Assembly: GCA_964430475.1 (NCBI GenBank)
Contig: CAYSEQ010000005.1
Span: 1-61,853 of the forward strand
DNA: 61,853 nt
Source of the DNA: an uncultured Gammaproteobacteria bacterium
GTDB lineage: Bacteria; Patescibacteriota; Microgenomatia; UBA8517
Direction: 5' to 3'
The position numbers and the translations under genes were made by a program. Under the pieces are notes generated by a model. That model saw nothing but the letters and a program-made list of their open reading frames with translations. It ran no database searches and was not told where the DNA came from. Shown here one piece after another: positions 3,470 to 29,623 of this stretch. Position 1 is the stretch's first letter, and the number at the start of each line of letters is the position of its first letter.

Positions 3470-3676
3470 GAGAAAAATATAAAGATAGGAAATTCTTTAA
3501 ACTCAATTCCGATAACTTGATGCTTGAGATCAGCCTGAAAGTACTCAATTTTTCTTTGTCTGACCTAGAAAAACTTAGTCCTCATCCAATGTTCCATACC
3601 CGCTATGTGATATAGTTTCACAGAATTCGGATATAGCCCCGGACTTCGGTTGATAAGAATTAGCTTTAAACCTTTT

Positions 3677-21285: not shown

Positions 21286-21995
21286 AATACGATCCGATAC
21301 CTAAAATTGCAAGGTTAAAATATCCTGTTACCCTTTTTATTTTTTGCGATTTCTGACAAGTACTCTTATCTGTTCCTAGAAATAGTGCCATAATATAGCT
21401 TTGACTGTAAGAGAACTAGGTATTCTTGGAAATACTGTTTAGCGCTGAATTGAAAGAGGAAGAACTACCTATGATTATCTGAAATGGAAGGGAATAGAAA
21501 GAAAATCTACTAAACCAAAAACTATCCATCGAATTTTAAAACCTCAAGAAGAAGATGTGGTTAACCCAAAGAAAGGACTGGATTTAATACTCCTTAGGTT
21601 AGCTTGGTGATTAAGAATAAAAAAGATTGGTATTTCTACCTCTAACTCTACTTACCGGATTAATAAGAAAATAAAAACCAAGAAAACTCGAAAAACCTAC
21701 ATGTGCCAACGTAAAACACCTGACAGGTGGTTTTAATTCTTCAGGCCTTAAGTCCTTCTCGGTCAACTCTAAAACATACATTGAATCTTCAACAATTCCA
21801 ACTAAGACGCTAACTCCCAAAGCCTGTAGTGCCATTTGTTCCCTCCCTCTTTTGTGAATCGCAACATGTTTTCAACCGCGAGAATATCAAATATCCTATA
21901 ATACCAAAAGAGCCCATGAGTCTTTAGGTTTTAAATCACCCTTAGACTATCTTTTAGAGAAAGGAGGAATGTCTAAAAAGTACCGAGATTGTACA
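21286..21995 (+). mobile_element. Degenerate, internally deleted IS481-family element
   Basis: HTH remnant NIALTVRELGILGNTV*R*IERG...KSTKPKTIHR (about 21390-21530); integrase-core tail YNTKRAHESLGFKSP (21897 onward); right end ...TGTACA at 21995; imperfect left IR near 21286-21304. Confidence 0.7.
21692..21730. repeat. 39-bp dispersed repeat, copy A, with palindrome CACCT-GAC-AGGTG
   Basis: 34/39 identical to 44058-44096. Confidence 0.75.
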
Positions 21996-22000
21996 AGAAC

Positions 22001-22029
22001 TTGATCTTAATAGAATGTTTTCATATAAT
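22001..22029 (+). promoter_or_regulatory. Sigma70 promoter
   Basis: TTGATC (22001-22006), 17 nt, TATAAT (22024-22029); ATG at 22040. Confidence 0.6.
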
Positions 22030-22115
22030 ACTCATCCATATGCAGATTGAGAGAAGACTAGATAAGTCAAGCTGTTGAGGCAGCGGAGTTTGCCAGAAAG
22101 AACGGTCGGGTCATT

Positions 22116-22928
22116 ATGGCGGCCGAACTAGCAGCAATAGGATTGGGCCTTACAAGCTTGCCCTTAACCGATGAAGAAGTGTCTCAACTAGCTCACGACC
22201 CGGAACAAAGAGCTATTTTAGCTTGTTTGGCTAGAATCCATGTTGATGCTCTTAAAACAGTGGCCAATCAAGCCAAATTGCCCTCCCGAGCCTTGCCCCC
22301 TTTAGAGGAAGCTACTAAAACAATTGTGACTGTTTACAGAAGTAAGACATTAAGAGAAGAGTTAAGGGGAGTTGTCCAAGACCATAAGGGACGAAGGCAT
22401 GATTTTCTTCCGGAAATGGCTCGTGATGAGGCCAAAACACTATTTGCAGCTTCTGTGTTGTATTATGGCACAGGAGGGGCCAAAAGCCTTATTCTACAAG
22501 GAGAGAGGATCTTATCTTCCACTTATGATTCTTTACCCAACGATCACCCCACTAAGCCTTTGATAGGAGTTGAGTTGCAACTCAGTAGAGCTGGTCGTGG
22601 TGAACGCCTTGACAAAGCTTCTTCGTTAGGTAATTTTAATAGTTTGGTTGATTCAGATATAGAGACAAATCCTCATAGAGTAGCAACAGTTGCCTCTTGG
22701 TTGGTGGCTTGGGGAGAAAGAATCGGCGACGAAGATGTTCGTGGAAGAGGCCTAGAAGTTTTCTCTAGAATCATTCAACAGCATAGGGAATGGCAATTTA
22801 TGATTGATAGCGAGAGACGAAAAATAGGCCGACAAAAAGAAAGAGAATTATTTTTTAGATTATTAACGCCAATAACAACAAACCCCGCGAGAAGAGAGAA
22901 ACTTAAGAACAGACTTATAGGTAAATAA
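22116..22928 (+). CDS. Hypothetical helical protein; may start at 22040 with a frameshift or stop near 22060
   Basis: 270-aa ORF; frame open upstream to TAG 22059-22061; promoter-proximal ATG 22040 lies in another frame. Confidence 0.65.
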   Translation: MAAELAAIGLGLTSLPLTDEEVSQLAHDPEQRAILACLARIHVDALKTVANQAKLPSRALPPLEEATKTIVTVYRSKTLREELRGVVQDHKGRRHDFLPEMARDEAKTLFAASVLYYGTGGAKSLILQGERILSSTYDSLPNDHPTKPLIGVELQLSRAGRGERLDKASSLGNFNSLVDSDIETNPHRVATVASWLVAWGERIGDEDVRGRGLEVFSRIIQQHREWQFMIDSERRKIGRQKERELFFRLLTPITTNPARREKLKNRLIGK

Positions 22929-23002
22929 GGAACAAAGGTTTAGAACTTGATATACCTTAAATAAAGGTAATTGGTGAAGAAAATTGCCCTTAGATTTCTT
23001 AC

Positions 23003-24010
23003 CTAATCTGTACGAAAGCCTAATCTTAATGCACCATAATTCGATAGTAATTCAGGATTATAAGTATAATATTCCCTTATCTTTTGTAGAGCGGTTTCAA
23101 ATTGTTTATCTAAAAGATTTTGAATGAGTTCCCTTCTAATTTTTACCCTTTCACTCTCACTTAAATTAGACCACCTGATGAAAATAATAGTGCCGATTAT
23201 TTTATCTACATTTTCTTCGTTCCCTGGGTACTCTTTTTCCAAGATTTTTTGTTCTTCCCTTCGCAGTTTCATCAATGCTCCTGTAAAATGGGATATCTTT
23301 CCGACTATTTTTGCAAAATAAGAATCTGCAGGAAAAACTCTTGTTTCTAATTGATAAGAAAATTGGGTTATAAAGTCAGAAATAAACATTGTTAATCTTT
23401 TTCCCAAAACATGCCTGGCTAGTTTTAAGGTTATAAGTGAGAATTCAGGTGAGTTTGGGTCTAAACCCACCTCTTTTAAGACATCCTTCAATAGGATTCT
23501 GGTTATCGTAATCTCAATAGTGTCAATTTTGTTCCTACGGTTTCCGACATTTGAAGCAAACCTGCCTATGATAATGCTTAAGTCATAAGGGCGAGAGTGA
23601 GAAATTGCCGCATCTCGGAAACTTTCTATGAATTTTTCAGCTTTTCGCCATCCTCTAAAAAAATGGCTTTGTATGGCGGGCTCAAATCTTTGATCTGAAA
23701 AAACATTCCAGACAGAATTCTCTGATAGAAACTTCCAATAATCTTCTTTTGCTAGTTTTGATAGTTCCCTAGTTTTATGAGGATTACTCTCAGAACGGGA
23801 GTTTTGATAAATATCTGCTATTTTCTCTTTTAATGATTGAAGTCCTTGCTGAGCAATTGGTCGATCAAGATGTTGAGCAATAAGAGTTAGAAATTGTCTT
23901 TCTCTTTCGGCTAGAGGCAGGGTAGGTAATTTTCTAATAAATTCTTTTGTCCTTTGGTTAAGTGTGTGGAAGTTTGAATAGTCTTGTGGTAGTTCTCGCA
24001 TCCTTTCCAT
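23003..24010 (-). CDS. Hypothetical helical protein, start MERMREL at 24010
   Basis: Long ORF; the extension to 24097 in the ORF track runs into the IS; promoter TTGACT-16-TAGTCT ends 8 nt before ATG 24010. Confidence 0.7.
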   Translation of the reverse strand: MERMRELPQDYSNFHTLNQRTKEFIRKLPTLPLAERERQFLTLIAQHLDRPIAQQGLQSLKEKIADIYQNSRSESNPHKTRELSKLAKEDYWKFLSENSVWNVFSDQRFEPAIQSHFFRGWRKAEKFIESFRDAAISHSRPYDLSIIIGRFASNVGNRRNKIDTIEITITRILLKDVLKEVGLDPNSPEFSLITLKLARHVLGKRLTMFISDFITQFSYQLETRVFPADSYFAKIVGKISHFTGALMKLRREEQKILEKEYPGNEENVDKIIGTIIFIRWSNLSESERVKIRRELIQNLLDKQFETALQKIREYYTYNPELLSNYGALRLGFRTD

Positions 24011-24051
24011 ATAGTCTAAGACTAAGATTGTACTACAGGAAGTCAATTTTT

Positions 24052-24735
24052 TGCACTGGCAGGGGTCATCGGTAACACTTGAGAGTAGTACTGGCAAGCA
24101 TACTCGATTGGTGTTTGGTAATCAAGAGAGTGGTGGGGTCTTCTGAAATTGTATTCGATCAGCCAGCCAGTCAGATCTTGATTAGCCTCTGAGATTTCGT
24201 CTAGGCCAAATTCAGACAGTTCTAACCACTCATCCTGTAGAGTCCGGTTAAATCTTTCTAAAGCAGGATTGTTTTTAGGTGTTTTGACCCGATTGTAGAC
24301 TTGTTTAATGCCCAGCTGTAAACATGCCTTTTCGAACTCTCCGGCAAACTCAGAGCCATTATCCGAGTGGATAATTCTAATCTGGCTTTGGGAAAGATAA
24401 ACCAGTCTTTGTAAGAAGTCTTTGACTTGTCGGGAGGAGGCTGATTGATAAACCCTGGCGTACCCCAACTTGGTTCTGTTTTCAGTGGCAGTAAAGATGA
24501 TTCTTCTTTGCCCGTACCACCAGAGGATAATGCTATCGGTATGCCAGAGCTTGCCAGACTGTGGATTAAAGCCGGCTTTCTTTAACTGCTGGATTCTAAT
24601 TTTAGGTTTGGTTTGTTTCCACCTCCTTCTCCTCCTGAGCTTCTCTTACTGCTCTTCTGGATTAGGATAGAGATGGTGCTTTCTGATGACTTTCTCGATC
24701 TTCCAAGTTGAAATTGACTCTTGATACTCTTTTCA
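24052..24735 (-). mobile_element. 5'-truncated IS481-family transposase pseudogene
   Basis: ISTWKIEKVIRKH...WHTDSI...IHSDNGSEF...ALERFNRTLQDEW...YNFRRPHHSL (DDE core); in-frame TAA at 24646-24648; ORF ends at TGA 24043. Confidence 0.85.
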
Positions 24736-24974
24736 TTCTGCCAGTCCACTGAGACGGAGATATCCTCGCTATCCATCGAGATTGAGGTAACTGGAGTTAC
24801 GGAAAGAGCCTGAGACACTGGTTGTTGCGATGACTGAGTACGAAGTGGAAGAAGTTGATATTGGGTAAATAGAGTTCTAAGAACAAGCACAAAGGCTACC
24901 AGTAACATAACGCCAGACAGGGAAATTACAAAGCGGATAATACTTTTTGGACTTGGATGAGCTTTCTTAGTCAT
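24582..24974 (-). pseudogene. Membrane-protein 5' part fused to IS-derived sequence
   Basis: TM segment FVISLSGVMLLVAFVLVL and Ser/Thr stalk; sequence below about 24735 is an alternative frame of the transposase. Confidence 0.5.
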
Positions 24975-25154
24975 GGTGTTGTCTTTTTTATTATGAGTTA
25001 ATCCTTCGTGTTGGTCTATACCTCCAAAATGCTACAAACCTTTTAGAATGTTCTCTATGGAAGGTGTAAAGAAATACCCTGAAGATGGTAGGAGGAGGTA
25101 GAGTATATTTTAAGGTTTATTGATAAATTAAGCCTTGTGAGAGTTTCAAGAAAG

Positions 25155-25895
25155 TTAAGGATTGACATTAACAAACCTAAAATTTGAAAGAATTAAGTCG
25201 AGATTAGATTTTGCTAGATTTTTATCAGCTAAAGGATAATCATAGCTTATATGTATCTGCGTTTTGATAGGGTAAATATCTTCATTCTCGATGGGAATTA
25301 AGACAAAGGTATTGCCAAGGTTAGCGTATTTCTCGGGCTCATCGCAGGCTTCCGACCCTCCAACACCATCTGCTGTCTCAGCCTTTCTACCTGCTACATT
25401 GATCTCTTTTCTCTCCCCGTATTTGTAACAGTAACCAAAACCAGTCACACGCCAAACTGAAATAGTAATATTATGCCCATTTGCTATATTGGAAAAAGAC
25501 ACTGTGTCATCTTGTCCTTGGGTTTTATTTATTTGCCAATTCTTGGGATATTTAAAGCTAAACTGATATTTTTCATTACTATATGTGTTAAAACCTTCGG
25601 CCTGAGTTGTTGAAGGTAGTGGTATTTCTTCAGGCTGGTGAGGAAGATTTTTAATTTGCAGAGTATCAATCTGTTTCTTCAATCCATAATACTTATAGGC
25701 GAATACGCTTGTAGTCCCAATTAGAAGGATAATCAAAAATACTAATAACCACGTGATGATGGACTTAGTTGCGTCCAATTTTTGAGAATTTGATACTTCG
25801 GTTGAGTTTGGAATATTAATTTGCTGGGAAGAAGATTCTAACCTATGTTCCGGGTAAGAAGATTGATCTGTGTTCATTTTGTCGTATAACACCAT
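25155..25895 (-). CDS. Single-pass surface protein with PsbP-like C-terminal domain
   Basis: TM IITWLLVFLIILLIGTTSVFAYKYY; TYSNEKYQFSFKYPKNW; Cys pair; ends LDLILSNFRF. Confidence 0.75.
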   Translation of the reverse strand: MVLYDKMNTDQSSYPEHRLESSSQQINIPNSTEVSNSQKLDATKSIITWLLVFLIILLIGTTSVFAYKYYGLKKQIDTLQIKNLPHQPEEIPLPSTTQAEGFNTYSNEKYQFSFKYPKNWQINKTQGQDDTVSFSNIANGHNITISVWRVTGFGYCYKYGERKEINVAGRKAETADGVGGSEACDEPEKYANLGNTFVLIPIENEDIYPIKTQIHISYDYPLADKNLAKSNLDLILSNFRFVNVNP

Positions 25896-25933
25896 CGCAA
25901 TATTAAGCCTTTCTAGGCTTTAGCGATTAAAAG

Positions 25934-26230
25934 TTAATGTCTATCTGGTTCGGATATATTTAAGTTGAGTCCTTTTTTCGGCGTGGTGTAAGTAAATGGT
26001 GTTTTAAGATTGCTTTCAACCTTTTCTTCTTTTACTACTACTTCTTCCTGGTCTATACCGTTTATTTCTTCAACTGTTTTCAAAGTACTTTCGGATTCAG
26101 CCAAGGTCTTTTCGTAATTTTTATTATTTGTTGAAATAAGATATACGCCAACAACAATTCCCAAAGTTAAAGTAGCAGTCATAAACCCCACTAAGAACAT
26201 TTTTAGATTATCAAGGTTAGTATTAAACAT
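25934..26230 (-). CDS. Small single-pass membrane protein
   Basis: One TM segment; 2 nt downstream of the 414-aa gene, so likely co-transcribed. Confidence 0.6.
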   Translation of the reverse strand: MFNTNLDNLKMFLVGFMTATLTLGIVVGVYLISTNNKNYEKTLAESESTLKTVEEINGIDQEEVVVKEEKVESNLKTPFTYTTPKKGLNLNISEPDRH

Positions 26231-26232
26231 TT

Positions 26233-27477
26233 TTAGTTAGGTATAGTTACCCCATTTCCATTATATGTTTTTTGTACAGCATTTCCAGGGAATTGTATAT
26301 ATCTTGCAGCTGAGCTTATATATTGTTCTAAACATTTATTTTGATAAGTTTTGCCATCTTTTCCTATAGTGGTTGCAGAGGGTTGGCATCTGGGATCACT
26401 CGGCCCTGAGACTATTTCGCCAAATTGTGTTGCCCAAAAAACTCTGTCTTTAGGAGGATTTCCTCGGTTGGGATCCACAGATCCCGGGGCGCTATACCAA
26501 GCAAGTTCAAGTCTTCTTGTTAAACCTAAATCGCCTGTTTTTTGCCAAGTAGACTGGTCAAAAACGCCTGTTAAACTATTCGGATCACCTGAAAGCTCTC
26601 TTTCTCTATTATAAAATGTTGTTGAACCACAAATTGTAATGCCAAAGTCAATAGACCAAGGGGCAGTATCTGCATACCATTGCTCGCAGGTTATACCTTG
26701 GTCAAAAGAGGTTTGATCGGTAACCAGAATAATAGGCCTTGTACTTTCGCAAGGAAGAGGTGGATTTCTTCTTAGACACCTGTCGTTTTCGCTTAAGGGA
26801 TTTCCCGAATAGCTCCAACCTTGAAGGTGAGATACATGTGTTGGATCGTTATCGTTGGATGGTCTCATCCAAAGTTGATATGAGTGATAACTTCCAAATC
26901 GTTCTTGAGGATTTGAAGCAAAATGGTAAATAAGATAAATATCCATTCCGTTGAAGGTCACGGAATAACCTTTCATTGATGTATGTTTTATCATATTTTC
27001 AATACCTGATGTACTGTGCATTCCTGAAAACATAGGATTGTATCCTGCGGCGTATATCCAGGATGGGGGAGGATCTCCATGTTCATGACCTGTTGCGCAA
27101 CCATTGACGACCGGAGGGTGCCATTCGTCCATTGATTCGCCACACTTACCAACCATTTGTTCATTAGGATTGGGGGTTGGATTTGGAGAGGAGGTTGGTG
27201 TGACTGAAATTCCAGGTATAGTAGTTGGATTGGTTGTAGGGATGATTGGAGTTGGTGTGGATCTTGTCTTGGCGGTACAGTAGACATTAAGGATGCCTGT
27301 AAAAAGATTTCTGCTTGTACTTATTTTTCCTCCCGAGCACTGAATTCTTAAAATATCGCCAACCTGCATGGAGATGCTATTACTTGCAGCTCTAACTAAG
27401 CTAAATCCAGAAAGTACAAGAAGTGAAGTCAGAAAAATTCCAACTAAAAATTTTTTTTCCCTTATTAAATTTAACAT
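26233..27477 (-). CDS. Secreted protein with Pro/Thr linker and a Cys/His-rich domain of unknown function
   Basis: Signal peptide ending VRA; TPTP-rich linker; CGESMDEWHPPVVNGCATGHEHGDPP. Confidence 0.8.
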   Translation of the reverse strand: MLNLIREKKFLVGIFLTSLLVLSGFSLVRAASNSISMQVGDILRIQCSGGKISTSRNLFTGILNVYCTAKTRSTPTPIIPTTNPTTIPGISVTPTSSPNPTPNPNEQMVGKCGESMDEWHPPVVNGCATGHEHGDPPPSWIYAAGYNPMFSGMHSTSGIENMIKHTSMKGYSVTFNGMDIYLIYHFASNPQERFGSYHSYQLWMRPSNDNDPTHVSHLQGWSYSGNPLSENDRCLRRNPPLPCESTRPIILVTDQTSFDQGITCEQWYADTAPWSIDFGITICGSTTFYNRERELSGDPNSLTGVFDQSTWQKTGDLGLTRRLELAWYSAPGSVDPNRGNPPKDRVFWATQFGEIVSGPSDPRCQPSATTIGKDGKTYQNKCLEQYISSAARYIQFPGNAVQKTYNGNGVTIPN

Positions 27478-27483
27478 TTATTA

Positions 27484-27512
27484 AGTATTTCAGAAGTTTT
27501 TATTCTTGTCAA
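27484..27512 (-). promoter_or_regulatory. Possible promoter giving a near-leaderless mRNA
   Basis: TTGACA (27512-27507), 17 nt, AATACT (weak -10), ATG 6 nt later at 27477. Confidence 0.45.
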
Positions 27513-27520
27513 GGGCTTTA

Positions 27521-28739
27521 TGTCCGGTGTTCAGGACATACTATACACTTTTTAAGGTTTGATTATTCTGTATATGCCTCCAAGATACTAGAACTTCTTG
27601 ACATTGATCCTCAAAAGATAGATTTTAGTAAGTATGAAAAGTACCACCCATATGAAGATTGACTACAAAGCTTTAAGAAAGATTAATCCTGAAGCAGCCA
27701 GAATGGTTGTTTTAGAGTATCTAAAAGCCTATGGAGGTAATATAGCTGATTGTGCCAGGGTCCTTTGGTATCCAAAGAGTGGTTGTCTATGATATCTTAA
27801 GGAAAGAAAAAGAGGGAGATCTAAAGGACAGGTCTAAAGCTCCCAAAAGATCTCCTAACAAAACACCAGATGAGGTTGAGGACAAGGCCATTGAGATGAA
27901 AAACAAAACCAGGTATGGTCCTCAAAGGTTATCAATCCACCTTAAAAGAGATATTACTTTCTTCATGTTGCTCCAGGAACAATCAGGCATATCCTAAGGA
28001 GAAACAAGCATAGATTAACTTACAAACTCAAGACAAGGGATGGGAAGATTACTAAAAGAGAATTTGTGGACTGGTACTCATCAAAACCGTTTGAGATAGT
28101 CCAGATTGATATTAAATTCATCAGAGATCAGAAAGCCTTAACTCTATCTCAAATACTACATCTGGACAAATATGCCATACCCAACTACCAGTGGAGCGCA
28201 GAAGATGTTAACTCCAGATTCAAGCTGATTGCCTATGCTAGAGAAAAAACCTGAACTAATGGACTGTGTTTTTATCTATGGGTAATCTCCTACCTAAGAA
28301 GTCATGGAGTAAAATCAGAGATAATCTTCACAGTTGACCATGGAGAAGAACTAGGAGGAAAATCCTGGATGAAGCTAACTGAGCTTAGAAAGCTAATATC
28401 AGGCTTTGGTTGTAGGCTAATCCAGAATCACAAAGGTCATCCTGAGGAGAATGCTCATTTAGAAAGATCCCACAGAACAGATGATGATGAGTTTTACATA
28501 TTCCGAGTATTCAAGATTAAATCAGAGGAAGATTTACTCAGTGAAGCTTTAAAATACCTCTACTACTACAACTTTTTAAGAGAACATTCATCCCTTAATT
28601 ACAAAACTCCCTACCAACACCTAAAAGAAACAATGCCTGATATTGATGACTCCATCAGATTTGTTATTCCATTTATCTTAGATGATGTATCTACTACCTT
28701 AGGTTCTTGGGGTGGATATCATCTCCTGGCTCAGAACCA
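27521..28739 (+). mobile_element. Full-length but inactivated IS481-family element (transposase 27652-28752)
   Basis: MKIDYKALRKINPEAAR HTH...VQIDIK...TVDHGEE...AHLERSHRTDDDEFY...YNFLREHSSL; two frameshifts (about 27752 and 27960) and TGA at 28252; imperfect terminal IRs (12/24); hairpin TATGTCC/GGACATA at 27519-27540. Confidence 0.85.
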
Positions 28740-28810
28740 AAGATTGGATTAGTTAATATCTACACGGTAGAAAAATATTTAACAGGCGAGGAATATCATT
28801 TTATGAGTAA

Positions 28811-29137
28811 AATTCTTTATTTGGAATTTTTCCTTACAGGCAACCATTAAATCAAGATGAAGTTTTTCAAGGCTCAGGAACTCTACCCAACTTTATTTAT
28901 GCAGGAAAAGCGTGTATTGCTTTAGACGAAGGCTGTATGGCTGAATATATAGGTGATGCTGGAATTGTAACAAATAATGATCCTAGGGAACTTGGAGGAG
29001 CAATAAATCAGCTATTGTTAGATGAAATAAGAATTAAATTTGAAAACAAAGTGGTAGAAAGAGTAAATTTATTTTCTATTGAACACCACGCGAAAGAATG
29101 TTTGAACTATTTTAACTTATTGCTTGGGAGTAAATGA
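28811..29137 (+). pseudogene. C-terminal remnant of a GT4 glycosyltransferase
   Basis: IFPY...GSGTL...AGKACIALDEGCMAEYIGDAG...DPRELGGAINQLL; no 5' part; lies just beyond the IS right end. Confidence 0.65.
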
Positions 29138-29623
29138 ATCCACTATTCTCCAGTTATTATCTCCTTGTTTGTAGTCATATCTAATTATTTGTGTTTCTCC
29201 ATAACTATTAAAATAATTCTTTGCTTCATCAAAGGTTATGTTTAAAAATGATTGGAGGATACTTTTGTTAATGCTTGAATGCGCAACAATCATTACAGTG
29301 TCGTATAAATCATAAAATGAAAAAATTTTAGGCATGACTCTTGTAATTCCCATTGTTGTGCTTTCTGCATCTGTTTTATCTGTTCTTGTGTAATATTCGT
29401 TAAATGAAGCAGAGGGTATTATCTTACTAGCGTTCGGATTAGCTCTTTCAGCAGTTTGTATAGTTCTTTTGTAAAGACTTGTAAAAATTATTTCTGGTAA
29501 GATACTTTTACTTTTTAGAAATTCCTTAATTTCACCAGCTTGAGTTTTACCATTTTCTGTAATCTTTCCATCTGGCTGCTCTTTAAAGTTTTCGGTATGT
29601 CTAACAAGAATCAATGTTTTCAT
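29117..29623 (-). CDS. Histidine phosphatase (phosphoglycerate mutase) family protein
   Basis: LILVRH, FTSLYKRTIQTA, FNE, IVAHS. Confidence 0.85.
   Translation of the reverse strand: MKTLILVRHTENFKEQPDGKITENGKTQAGEIKEFLKSKSILPEIIFTSLYKRTIQTAERANPNASKIIPSASFNEYYTRTDKTDAESTTMGITRVMPKIFSFYDLYDTVMIVAHSSINKSILQSFLNITFDEAKNYFNSYGETQIIRYDYKQGDNNWRIVDSFTPKQ

Follow-up and report, generated by a model that had tools for sequence, protein, structure and literature searches.

A 61,853-nt contig of an uncultured bacterium placed in the Microgenomatia (Patescibacteriota; GenBank assembly GCA_964430475.1, contig CAYSEQ010000005.1), analyzed here over its whole length and referred to as the window, carries two decayed insertion sequences (IS), E1 and E2, each ending 5 nt short of the -35 box of a promoter-like sequence. 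Comparison with their relatives makes it highly probable that both are relics of an IS481-like lineage of ~1.1 kb that inserts site- and orientation-specifically just upstream of sigma-70-type promoters. The initial annotation of the window had suggested a promoter-targeting strategy in an IS481 lineage, and the motifs it described on both strands are present exactly where it placed them; the strategy itself is now supported by the register of insertion, the accompanying -10 boxes, target site duplications (TSDs), a fixed orientation and the open reading frames (ORFs) downstream. Because promoter-like motifs occur in this AT-rich region at chance frequency (24, versus 20.8 +/- 4.2 in shuffled sequences), the two cases in the window are not significant alone, and relatives were needed to evaluate them.

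The C-terminal part of E2 (191 aa) matched hundreds of homologues at 50-78% identity, mostly from Microgenomates/Patescibacteria metagenomes but reaching beyond the candidate phyla radiation (CPR) into metagenome-assembled genomes (MAGs) of Dehalococcoidia, Omnitrophota and Planctomycetota; the E2-type lineage is spread over Patescibacteria/CPR, Dehalococcoidia and other uncultivated phyla. We assembled 80 metagenome and 80 genome loci, and these 160 loci yielded 107 unique right-end sites, whereas statistics on target duplication were restricted to the 81 complete elements in which both ends were located. The relatives encode single ORFs of 305-335 aa with helix-turn-helix (HTH_23/28, HTH_32) and integrase core (rve, rve_3) domains, and most of the elements measure 1.09-1.18 kb. 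Their inverted repeats (IRs) are ~28 bp long and asymmetric over the outer 14-15 nt: left ends (IRL) read TG(C/T/A)..GATGAGATACATCGGTAACAC, with C, T, A or G as the third base, and right ends (IRR) read ...GTGTTACCGATGT-N11-ACA, the terminal ACA having T at the third position of its reverse complement in 97%.

Counted from the base that follows this terminal ACA, T occupied +6 at 97 of the 107 sites, T occupied +7 at 93 and G occupied +8 at 86, so that TTG stood at +6 to +8 in 81 independent right-end sites. The match from +6 extended to TTGA at 64 sites, to TTGAC at 59 and to the entire TTGACA at 41. Enrichment of TTGA at +6 to +9 across many insertions, on which the initial annotation had made its proposal depend, proved to be strong, with no other offset holding TTGA at more than five sites (one at +5, two at +7). 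To exclude bias from the motif filter, we also estimated where the element should end in every locus by tblastn extrapolation only; TTGAC then fell within -6 to +20 of this estimate in 74 of 143 loci, compared to 1.9% of control windows, and most of the loci missed by the filter display the same pattern by eye. A second signal, T29 A30 ... T34 with TG enriched at +26/+27, corresponds to a -10 box, often extended, at a 17-nt spacing. TAnnnT starting at +28 to +30 was present at 63 of the 81 sites with TTG (background 4.8) and at 15 of the 26 sites without it (background 1.7). The orientation is invariant, the promoter always being on the side of the IRR, where the transposase gene ends, and an ORF of at least 60 aa begins on the same strand within 300 nt at 69 of 80 sites. 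Taken together, the -10 box ~17 nt away, the constant orientation and the ORF that begins on the same strand within 300 nt show that the targets are real promoters. Some of the downstream ORFs are leaderless (ATG 6-11 nt past the -10 box), others have Shine-Dalgarno leaders, and one target precedes a tRNA gene. A preference for highly expressed downstream genes was considered and rejected, as a sample of 10 products was functionally diverse with no evident bias (a DEAD helicase, a LacI-type regulator, a weak match to IclR/MarR-type HTH proteins and seven unknowns).

Two further observations concern the target sites. The ATG lies only 6-11 nt past the -10 box at many targets, as it also does in the window at 24010, 27477 and 22040, a spacing that suggests frequent use of leaderless mRNAs by these organisms. 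Furthermore, E2-type copies are nested in the 3' coding part of another copy at L011 (1186, 1268), L064 (3561, 3652) and L040 (823, 1308), leaving duplicated ..VLPMWSAST ends. The nested sites are promoter-like in L011 (TTGATT-17-TATGCT) and L064 (TTGCCT-17-TATATT), and L040 has a poor hexamer (CACTGG) at the -35 position.

Whether the -35 box belongs to the host or to the element was decided by the 5 nt that separate it from the terminal ACA. A perfect 5-bp TSD was found in 26 of the 81 complete elements (0.08 expected; zero to one in shifted controls), and TTG directly abuts the TSD in 24 of these 26. This left-end copy of the 5 nt places the boundary of the element at ACA, and both the -35 and the -10 boxes are pre-existing host DNA. 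No sequence preference was detected within the TSD or in the left flank of the 81 complete elements. Where the same IS occupies different sites, the TSDs differ and TTGAC is constant, as in L057 (CTCTA) and L058 (GCCTA) and in L149 and L152, which stem from one MAG; likewise, the copies of one IS in L039, L047, L075 and L076 diverge immediately after ACA with the exception of TTGAC. The possibility raised at the outset that TTGA lies inside the element's own IR is thereby answered in the negative, as the 5 bp between ACA and TTG are a TSD that differs between copies.

The same geometry provides the transposase with its stop codon. The E2-type ORF has no stop of its own and remains open right up to the terminal base of the element; exactly two flank codons are read before the stop at 62 of the 107 sites, and TGA is the stop used at 76. 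At the protein level, the alignable C-termini are conserved to ..VLPMxPA(S/R)T and variable beyond. About 15 of 26 aligned proteins continue for exactly two variable residues, the second always an amino acid with an NNT codon, which is the pattern expected if the ORF leaves the element into N5-TTGA; the others have long, unrelated tails. The earlier description, in which the frame runs off the element, reads two host codons and stops at the TGA of the -35 hexamer, is thus true of E1, of E2 and of those 62 sites. Its further statement that this guarantees termination was too strong, given that the two-codon TGA stop serves ~58% of sites and that the ORF elsewhere continues for 0-130 codons.

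The evidence for E1 is thinner. A single homologue of its 3' end (P0241, at locus L188, 1-420) was found in a collection of 5.8 billion proteins, and it, too, is a relic, ~90% identical to E1 over the last ~110 nt (window 21885-21995). It ends as ACA followed by AGATA and TTGGCA-17-TAAAAT, and as this promoter-like flank follows N5, the E1 type appears to obey the same rule (n = 2), although the AGA that follows ACA in both E1 and L188 makes the E1-type terminus less certain. The E1 type is extremely rare and was seen only as these 3' relics, with the end that abuts the promoter preserved in both.

Three other explanations of the pattern were weighed against site-specific insertion by the lineage itself. 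It is hardly conceivable that the promoter belongs to the element, facing outward from an extended right end whose true terminus lies downstream of the -10 box. Outward -35 boxes in the IRR are indeed common among IS, L007 and L008 have 25 nt past ACA in common, and AGA follows ACA in both E1 and L188; yet the 5 nt before TTG are duplicated at the left end of 26 elements, copies of one IS diverge right after ACA save for TTGAC, and spacers and downstream sequences are unrelated between sites. The TSDs refute an element-owned promoter for the E2 clade, and the E1 type rests on n = 2. The pair L007 and L008 is peculiar in that the same element (right end at 3522) stands between different left flanks, with no TSD, and shares identical 25 nt past ACA (AAAAT TTGACA gaatttggtataat) before the flanks diverge. 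We also regard it as very improbable that insertion is broad, with little or no target specificity, and that purifying selection in compact genomes merely spares the copies lying just upstream of promoters. The genomes are gene-dense and many copies are old (55 of 81 lack a TSD), as such filtering would have it, but it cannot account for a register fixed to a single nucleotide (TTGA at +6 in 64 sites, at +5 in one and at +7 in two) or for a strictly fixed orientation, and it is the young, TSD-bearing insertions that display the pattern most strongly (24/26).

A more serious alternative, though one we consider less probable than not, is that the promoter is recognized through protein, with the transposase docking on sigma region 4 or on promoter-bound RNA polymerase holoenzyme, so that the DNA sequence only recruits the polymerase. 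Targeting of this kind has been shown for Ty3, which is guided by TFIIIB. Consistent with it, the -10 box is correctly spaced in 15 of the 26 sites without TTG; L025 is young (perfect TSD) and has an extended -10 box without any -35 consensus, as poor -35 hexamers are also paired with extended -10 boxes in L018 and L044; the nested insertions at L011 and L064 lie at -35-like and -10-like boxes 17 nt apart; and a second clade, described below, uses the same promoter feature in another geometry. A precedent has been proposed for TnGBS and ISLre2 (PMC3942029). Against docking, the register is nucleotide-exact with respect to the -35 box and the -10 box is blurred by spacers of 16-18 nt, and the poor -35 hexamers at old sites may reflect decay after insertion. 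Moreover, 24 of 26 young insertions have TTG, more than typical promoter sets show, and integration at about -36 to -40 falls inside the usual footprint of RNA polymerase. For these three reasons (the register locked to the -35 box, TTG in the young insertions and the site inside the footprint), we favor a transposase complex at the IRR that reads TTGAC directly. Several observations weigh against our reading of targeted insertion and of TTGAC as its signal. A perfect TSD is lacking in 55 of the 81 complete elements; no empty sites were recovered, pre-insertion sequences being reconstructed from TSDs only; TTG is missing at 26 of the 107 sites, a few of which have no promoter at all (L035, L019, L069); -10 boxes properly spaced from poor -35 hexamers speak for the promoter being recognized as a whole and not by its TTGAC only, L025 being the clearest case (perfect TSD, GGTTTC at the -35 position, TGgTATAAT); and all three IS copies in the window are dead relics.

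The mechanism we propose starts from the position, duplication, orientation, promoter anatomy and stop usage as observed. Every element has a gene for a single DDE transposase that combines an rve core with HTH domains at its N-terminus and is predicted to act on the asymmetric ~28-bp IRs. A staggered cut would produce the 5-bp duplication, its promoter-side edge abutting the first T of the -35 hexamer, with the register set by the transposase at the IRR, which may read the -35 box (TTGAC) directly. As the IRR (...ACA) is always toward the promoter, the transposase gene points to the host gene. The conserved C-terminus ..VLPMxxxST is encoded by the IRR to its last base; the frame then continues through the 5-bp duplication and the first T of TTGACA as two codons and stops with the TGA that TTGA provides. 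On the host side, the -35 box, spacer and -10 box of the core promoter are left intact. The gene downstream would therefore probably retain its promoter and be deprived only of sequences farther upstream, and it is reasonable to infer that insertion spares it, an arrangement that may constitute a low-cost safe haven for the element. The orientation is probably fixed by the asymmetry of the IRs, by analogy with what has been argued for ISLre2-type elements. L035 (2417-3534) is a natural test case for this role of asymmetry: its left arm is IRR-like and 28/30 complementary, making the IRs nearly symmetric, and there is no promoter past its right end. We also considered whether the target promoter mimics the IRL or an IRR-IRL circle junction, and rejected this as too weak because only TG and TA..A coincide, with a register shift of one nucleotide.

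The third IS in the window, E3, belongs to a second IS481-like clade, whose ORF in E3 itself carries several frameshifts and one stop. This clade is very abundant (more than 1,100 proteins at E <= 1e-10; 70-87% identity among the 120 matches listed), and we analyzed loci L162-L171 and L177-L187. The initial annotation had remarked that the left end of E3 lies 8 nt from a TTGACA (27512), and this reflects a real pattern, but one of different geometry, involving the left end and a divergent promoter. Outward from the IRL, a reverse-complement TTGACA-like hexamer follows after 8 nt in 7 of 10 distinct left flanks (TTGACA in three, TTGACT in two, TTGATT and TTGTAT in one each), TAnnnT is found 17 nt from it in four of the six with sufficient flank (L162, L165, L166, L187), and a 4-bp duplication was matched in four independent insertions. 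At the other end, the E3-type ORF continues past the element into unrelated flanks, which add from 0 to more than 50 residues, and no motif was detected in ten right flanks. A homology-placed right end that would obey the 5-nt rule in E3 (ACC, then AAAGA, then TTGGAT-18-TAGAAA) was rejected because those ten flanks are free of motifs, and a 24-nt inverted repeat (27432-27455 / 28809-28832) was rejected as the ends of E3 because homologues define the true IRL and IRR. Five matches to the E3-type IRL in IMG/VR were all chance hits without a transposase. In two pairs of loci, L166/L167 and L178/L183, the two contigs carry one and the same E3-type copy with an identical TSD, agree over as many as four more bases of the left flank, and diverge about where the -35 box begins, the TTGAC hexamer being present in only one member of each pair. 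A search with the 414-aa neighbor recovered only the same genome, as Logan contig SRR11582147_522 (L161), which ends 84 nt upstream of gene 26233-27477, inside the left end of E3 (window ~27561), a break suggestive of multiple E3-type copies in that genome.

It is tempting, if doubtful, to suppose that at least two separate IS481-like clades evolved to read promoter architecture, the E2/E1 type with its right end 5 bp from the -35 box and codirectional with the host gene, the E3 type with its left end at 8 nt, a divergent promoter and a 4-bp TSD, whether through sigma/RNA polymerase or through an HTH mimicking sigma region 4, with the -35 box co-opted as a translational stop in the E2 type. 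Were this so, promoter reading by IS481-like clades would be a bacterial counterpart of Ty3-TFIIIB targeting, and the use of the -35 box as a stop would make expression of the transposase depend on whether the host promoter is occupied.

The elements, promoters and host genes of the window are listed in Table 1. E1 is a ~590-nt fragment without an ORF, and three-frame translation recovers only pieces of its transposase, including the C-terminal YNTKRAHESLGFKSPLDYLLEKGGMSKKYRDCT. At 21406, TGTAAGAGA..TAGGTA resembles the IRL of the family and is a candidate left end, and no second copy of AGAAC was matched at this decayed end. The promoter beside E1 is the best-scoring promoter-like site of the region in a consensus scan (10/12 matches), and the E1 frame runs TGT ACA (21990-21995) AGA ACT TGA, with its stop at 22002-22004. 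E2 retains the C-terminal ~225 codons with one in-frame stop; its left end is gone, as are roughly the first 95 codons, and a search of the window detected neither an IRL-like sequence for E2 nor further IRL copies. Its frame runs AGT GCA AAA AAT TGA, with the stop at 24045-24043. The adjacent -10 box is weak, TAGTCT matching TATAAT at 3/6 positions, and was missed by the consensus scan. The early claim that a host gene starts 8-10 nt after each -10 box holds for gene B, whose ATG at 24010 lies only 8 nt past the box and which is therefore of the leaderless type, but fails beside E1, where the ATG at 22040, 10 nt past the box, opens only a 12-codon ORF and the 270-aa ORF lies in another frame. 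A database lookup returned no record elsewhere for the 335-aa and 270-aa products through which other contexts or empty sites might have been found.

Table 1. Features of the window discussed in the text
Feature	Position	Strand	Remarks
E1, heavily decayed IS481-like relic	21406..21995	+	Right terminus ...TGTACA at 21995 firm; left boundary uncertain
AGAAC, 5 nt at target-duplication position beside E1	21996..22000	+	By analogy with the proven 5-bp TSD of the E2 clade
Host promoter TTGATC-17-TATAAT beside E1	22001..22029	+	-35, 22001-22006; -10, 22024-22029
Host gene A, downstream of the E1 promoter	22040..22928	+	270-aa ORF at 22116-22928; no family match
Host gene B, 335 aa	23003..24010	-	No family match
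Host promoter TTGACT-16-TAGTCT beside E2	24019..24046	-	-35, 24046-24041; -10, 24024-24019
AAAAA, 5 nt at target-duplication position beside E2	24047..24051	-	5-bp TSD proven in relatives
E2, 5'-truncated IS481-like relic	24052..24735	-	End ...GTGTTACCGATGACCCCTGCCAGTGCA; last codons AGT GCA, last base 24052
Promoter TTGACA-17-AATACT of gene 26233-27477	27484..27512	-	Fires away from E3, -35 box 8 nt from its left end; 10/12 matches, with TG
E3, full-length (1218 bp), frameshifted, second IS481-like clade	27521..28738	+	IRL TGTCCGGTGTTCAGGACATACTATACAC

The surroundings, at 21300-29140, form a decay zone of three IS relics and ORF remnants. A membrane-protein ORF at 24582-24974 owes its 3' part to an out-of-frame reading of E2, a C-terminal fragment of a glycosyltransferase lies at 28937-29137, and between E1 and E2 lie two convergent ORFs without family match.

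To our knowledge, the only bacterial elements known to home to promoters with nucleotide precision and in a specific orientation are the Mutator-like TnGBS, ISLre2 and ISKra4, and no report of promoter homing by IS481-like elements was found in the full-text literature searched, whose coverage is incomplete, so an earlier description is possible. The occurrence of such homing in an unrelated, integrase-like IS481 lineage would make landing just upstream of a promoter a convergent safe-haven strategy, executed in two geometries, and would link promoter homing to the family habit of taking a stop codon from the target. The lineage may also offer a simple 1.1-kb system for studying how a DDE transposase reads a -35 box, as well as free promoter annotation, in that each insertion would flag a -35/-10 pair in organisms whose promoters have never been mapped by experiment.

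The family affiliation rests on NF033577, the NCBIfam model for IS481, which was the best model for E1, E2 and E3 (125-129 bits for the fragments in the window) and matched full-length relatives end to end (positions 2-283 of 284) at 153-213 bits, below the cut-off of 224; the lineage is therefore a divergent IS481-like clade. In common with IS481 of Bordetella and ISRe46/TnRErm46 of Rhodococcus equi, its members are ~1-1.2 kb long, encode a single HTH and rve DDE transposase and have TGT...ACA-type termini with imperfect IRs; they have a single ORF instead of the programmed frameshift of IS3. The ORF of ISRe46 likewise extends to the element end, and the TAG of its NCTAGN target duplication supplies the transposase stop (PMC6794481). 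A target-supplied stop is thus already known in the IS481 family, and the variant here is that it comes from the -35 hexamer just past the duplication. Canonical IS481 elements target a CTAG palindrome inside a duplication of mostly 6 bp (NCTAGN) and use its TAG, whereas the E2 type targets a -35 box (TTGACA) outside a 5-bp duplication that has no internal preference, uses a TGA two codons past its end and keeps a strictly fixed orientation. As TSDs in the family span 2-15 bp (PMC10045372), a length of 5 bp is a deviation from the majority and does not exclude membership. Variable C-termini produced by reading into the downstream flank are also described for IS1239 of Streptococcus pyogenes, and the portion of that report available mentions neither promoter targeting nor a regular target-supplied stop (PMC13630536).

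In their choice of target, E2-type elements are like ISLre2, the TnGBS integrative and conjugative elements and ISKra4, which insert in a fixed orientation and keep a constant distance from the -35 box of the sigma-70/sigma-A promoters that they precede. That distance is some 15-17 bp, whereas the E2-type duplication abuts the -35 box, placing the element at 5 bp. The transposases of these elements are Mutator-like DDE enzymes (p-MULT 3/4) with a promoter-targeting signature; the rve/IS481-like core of the E2 type is unrelated to them and the lineage is not a member of that group. For ISLre2 and TnGBS, asymmetric IRs are proposed to set the orientation (PMC3942029), and no target-supplied stop such as the E2 type has is described for these elements. 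In its geometry, the E2 type most resembles the "dif site hunters" ISAjo2 and ISAba32 of the IS1202 family, whose transposase is distantly related to those of IS481 and IS3 and which insert in one orientation, with a 5-bp TSD, 5 bp from the XerC arm of dif/pdif (PMC10132070; bioRxiv 10.1101/2022.12.17.520857), so that there, too, the duplication abuts the recognized site. The target of IS1202 elements is a Xer recombination site and that of the E2 type a promoter; the left end faces the target in IS1202, as in the E3 type, and the right end does so in the E2 type; and with 1.5 kb and a transposase of ~440 aa against 1.1 kb and ~320 aa, the two are set apart by size and target.

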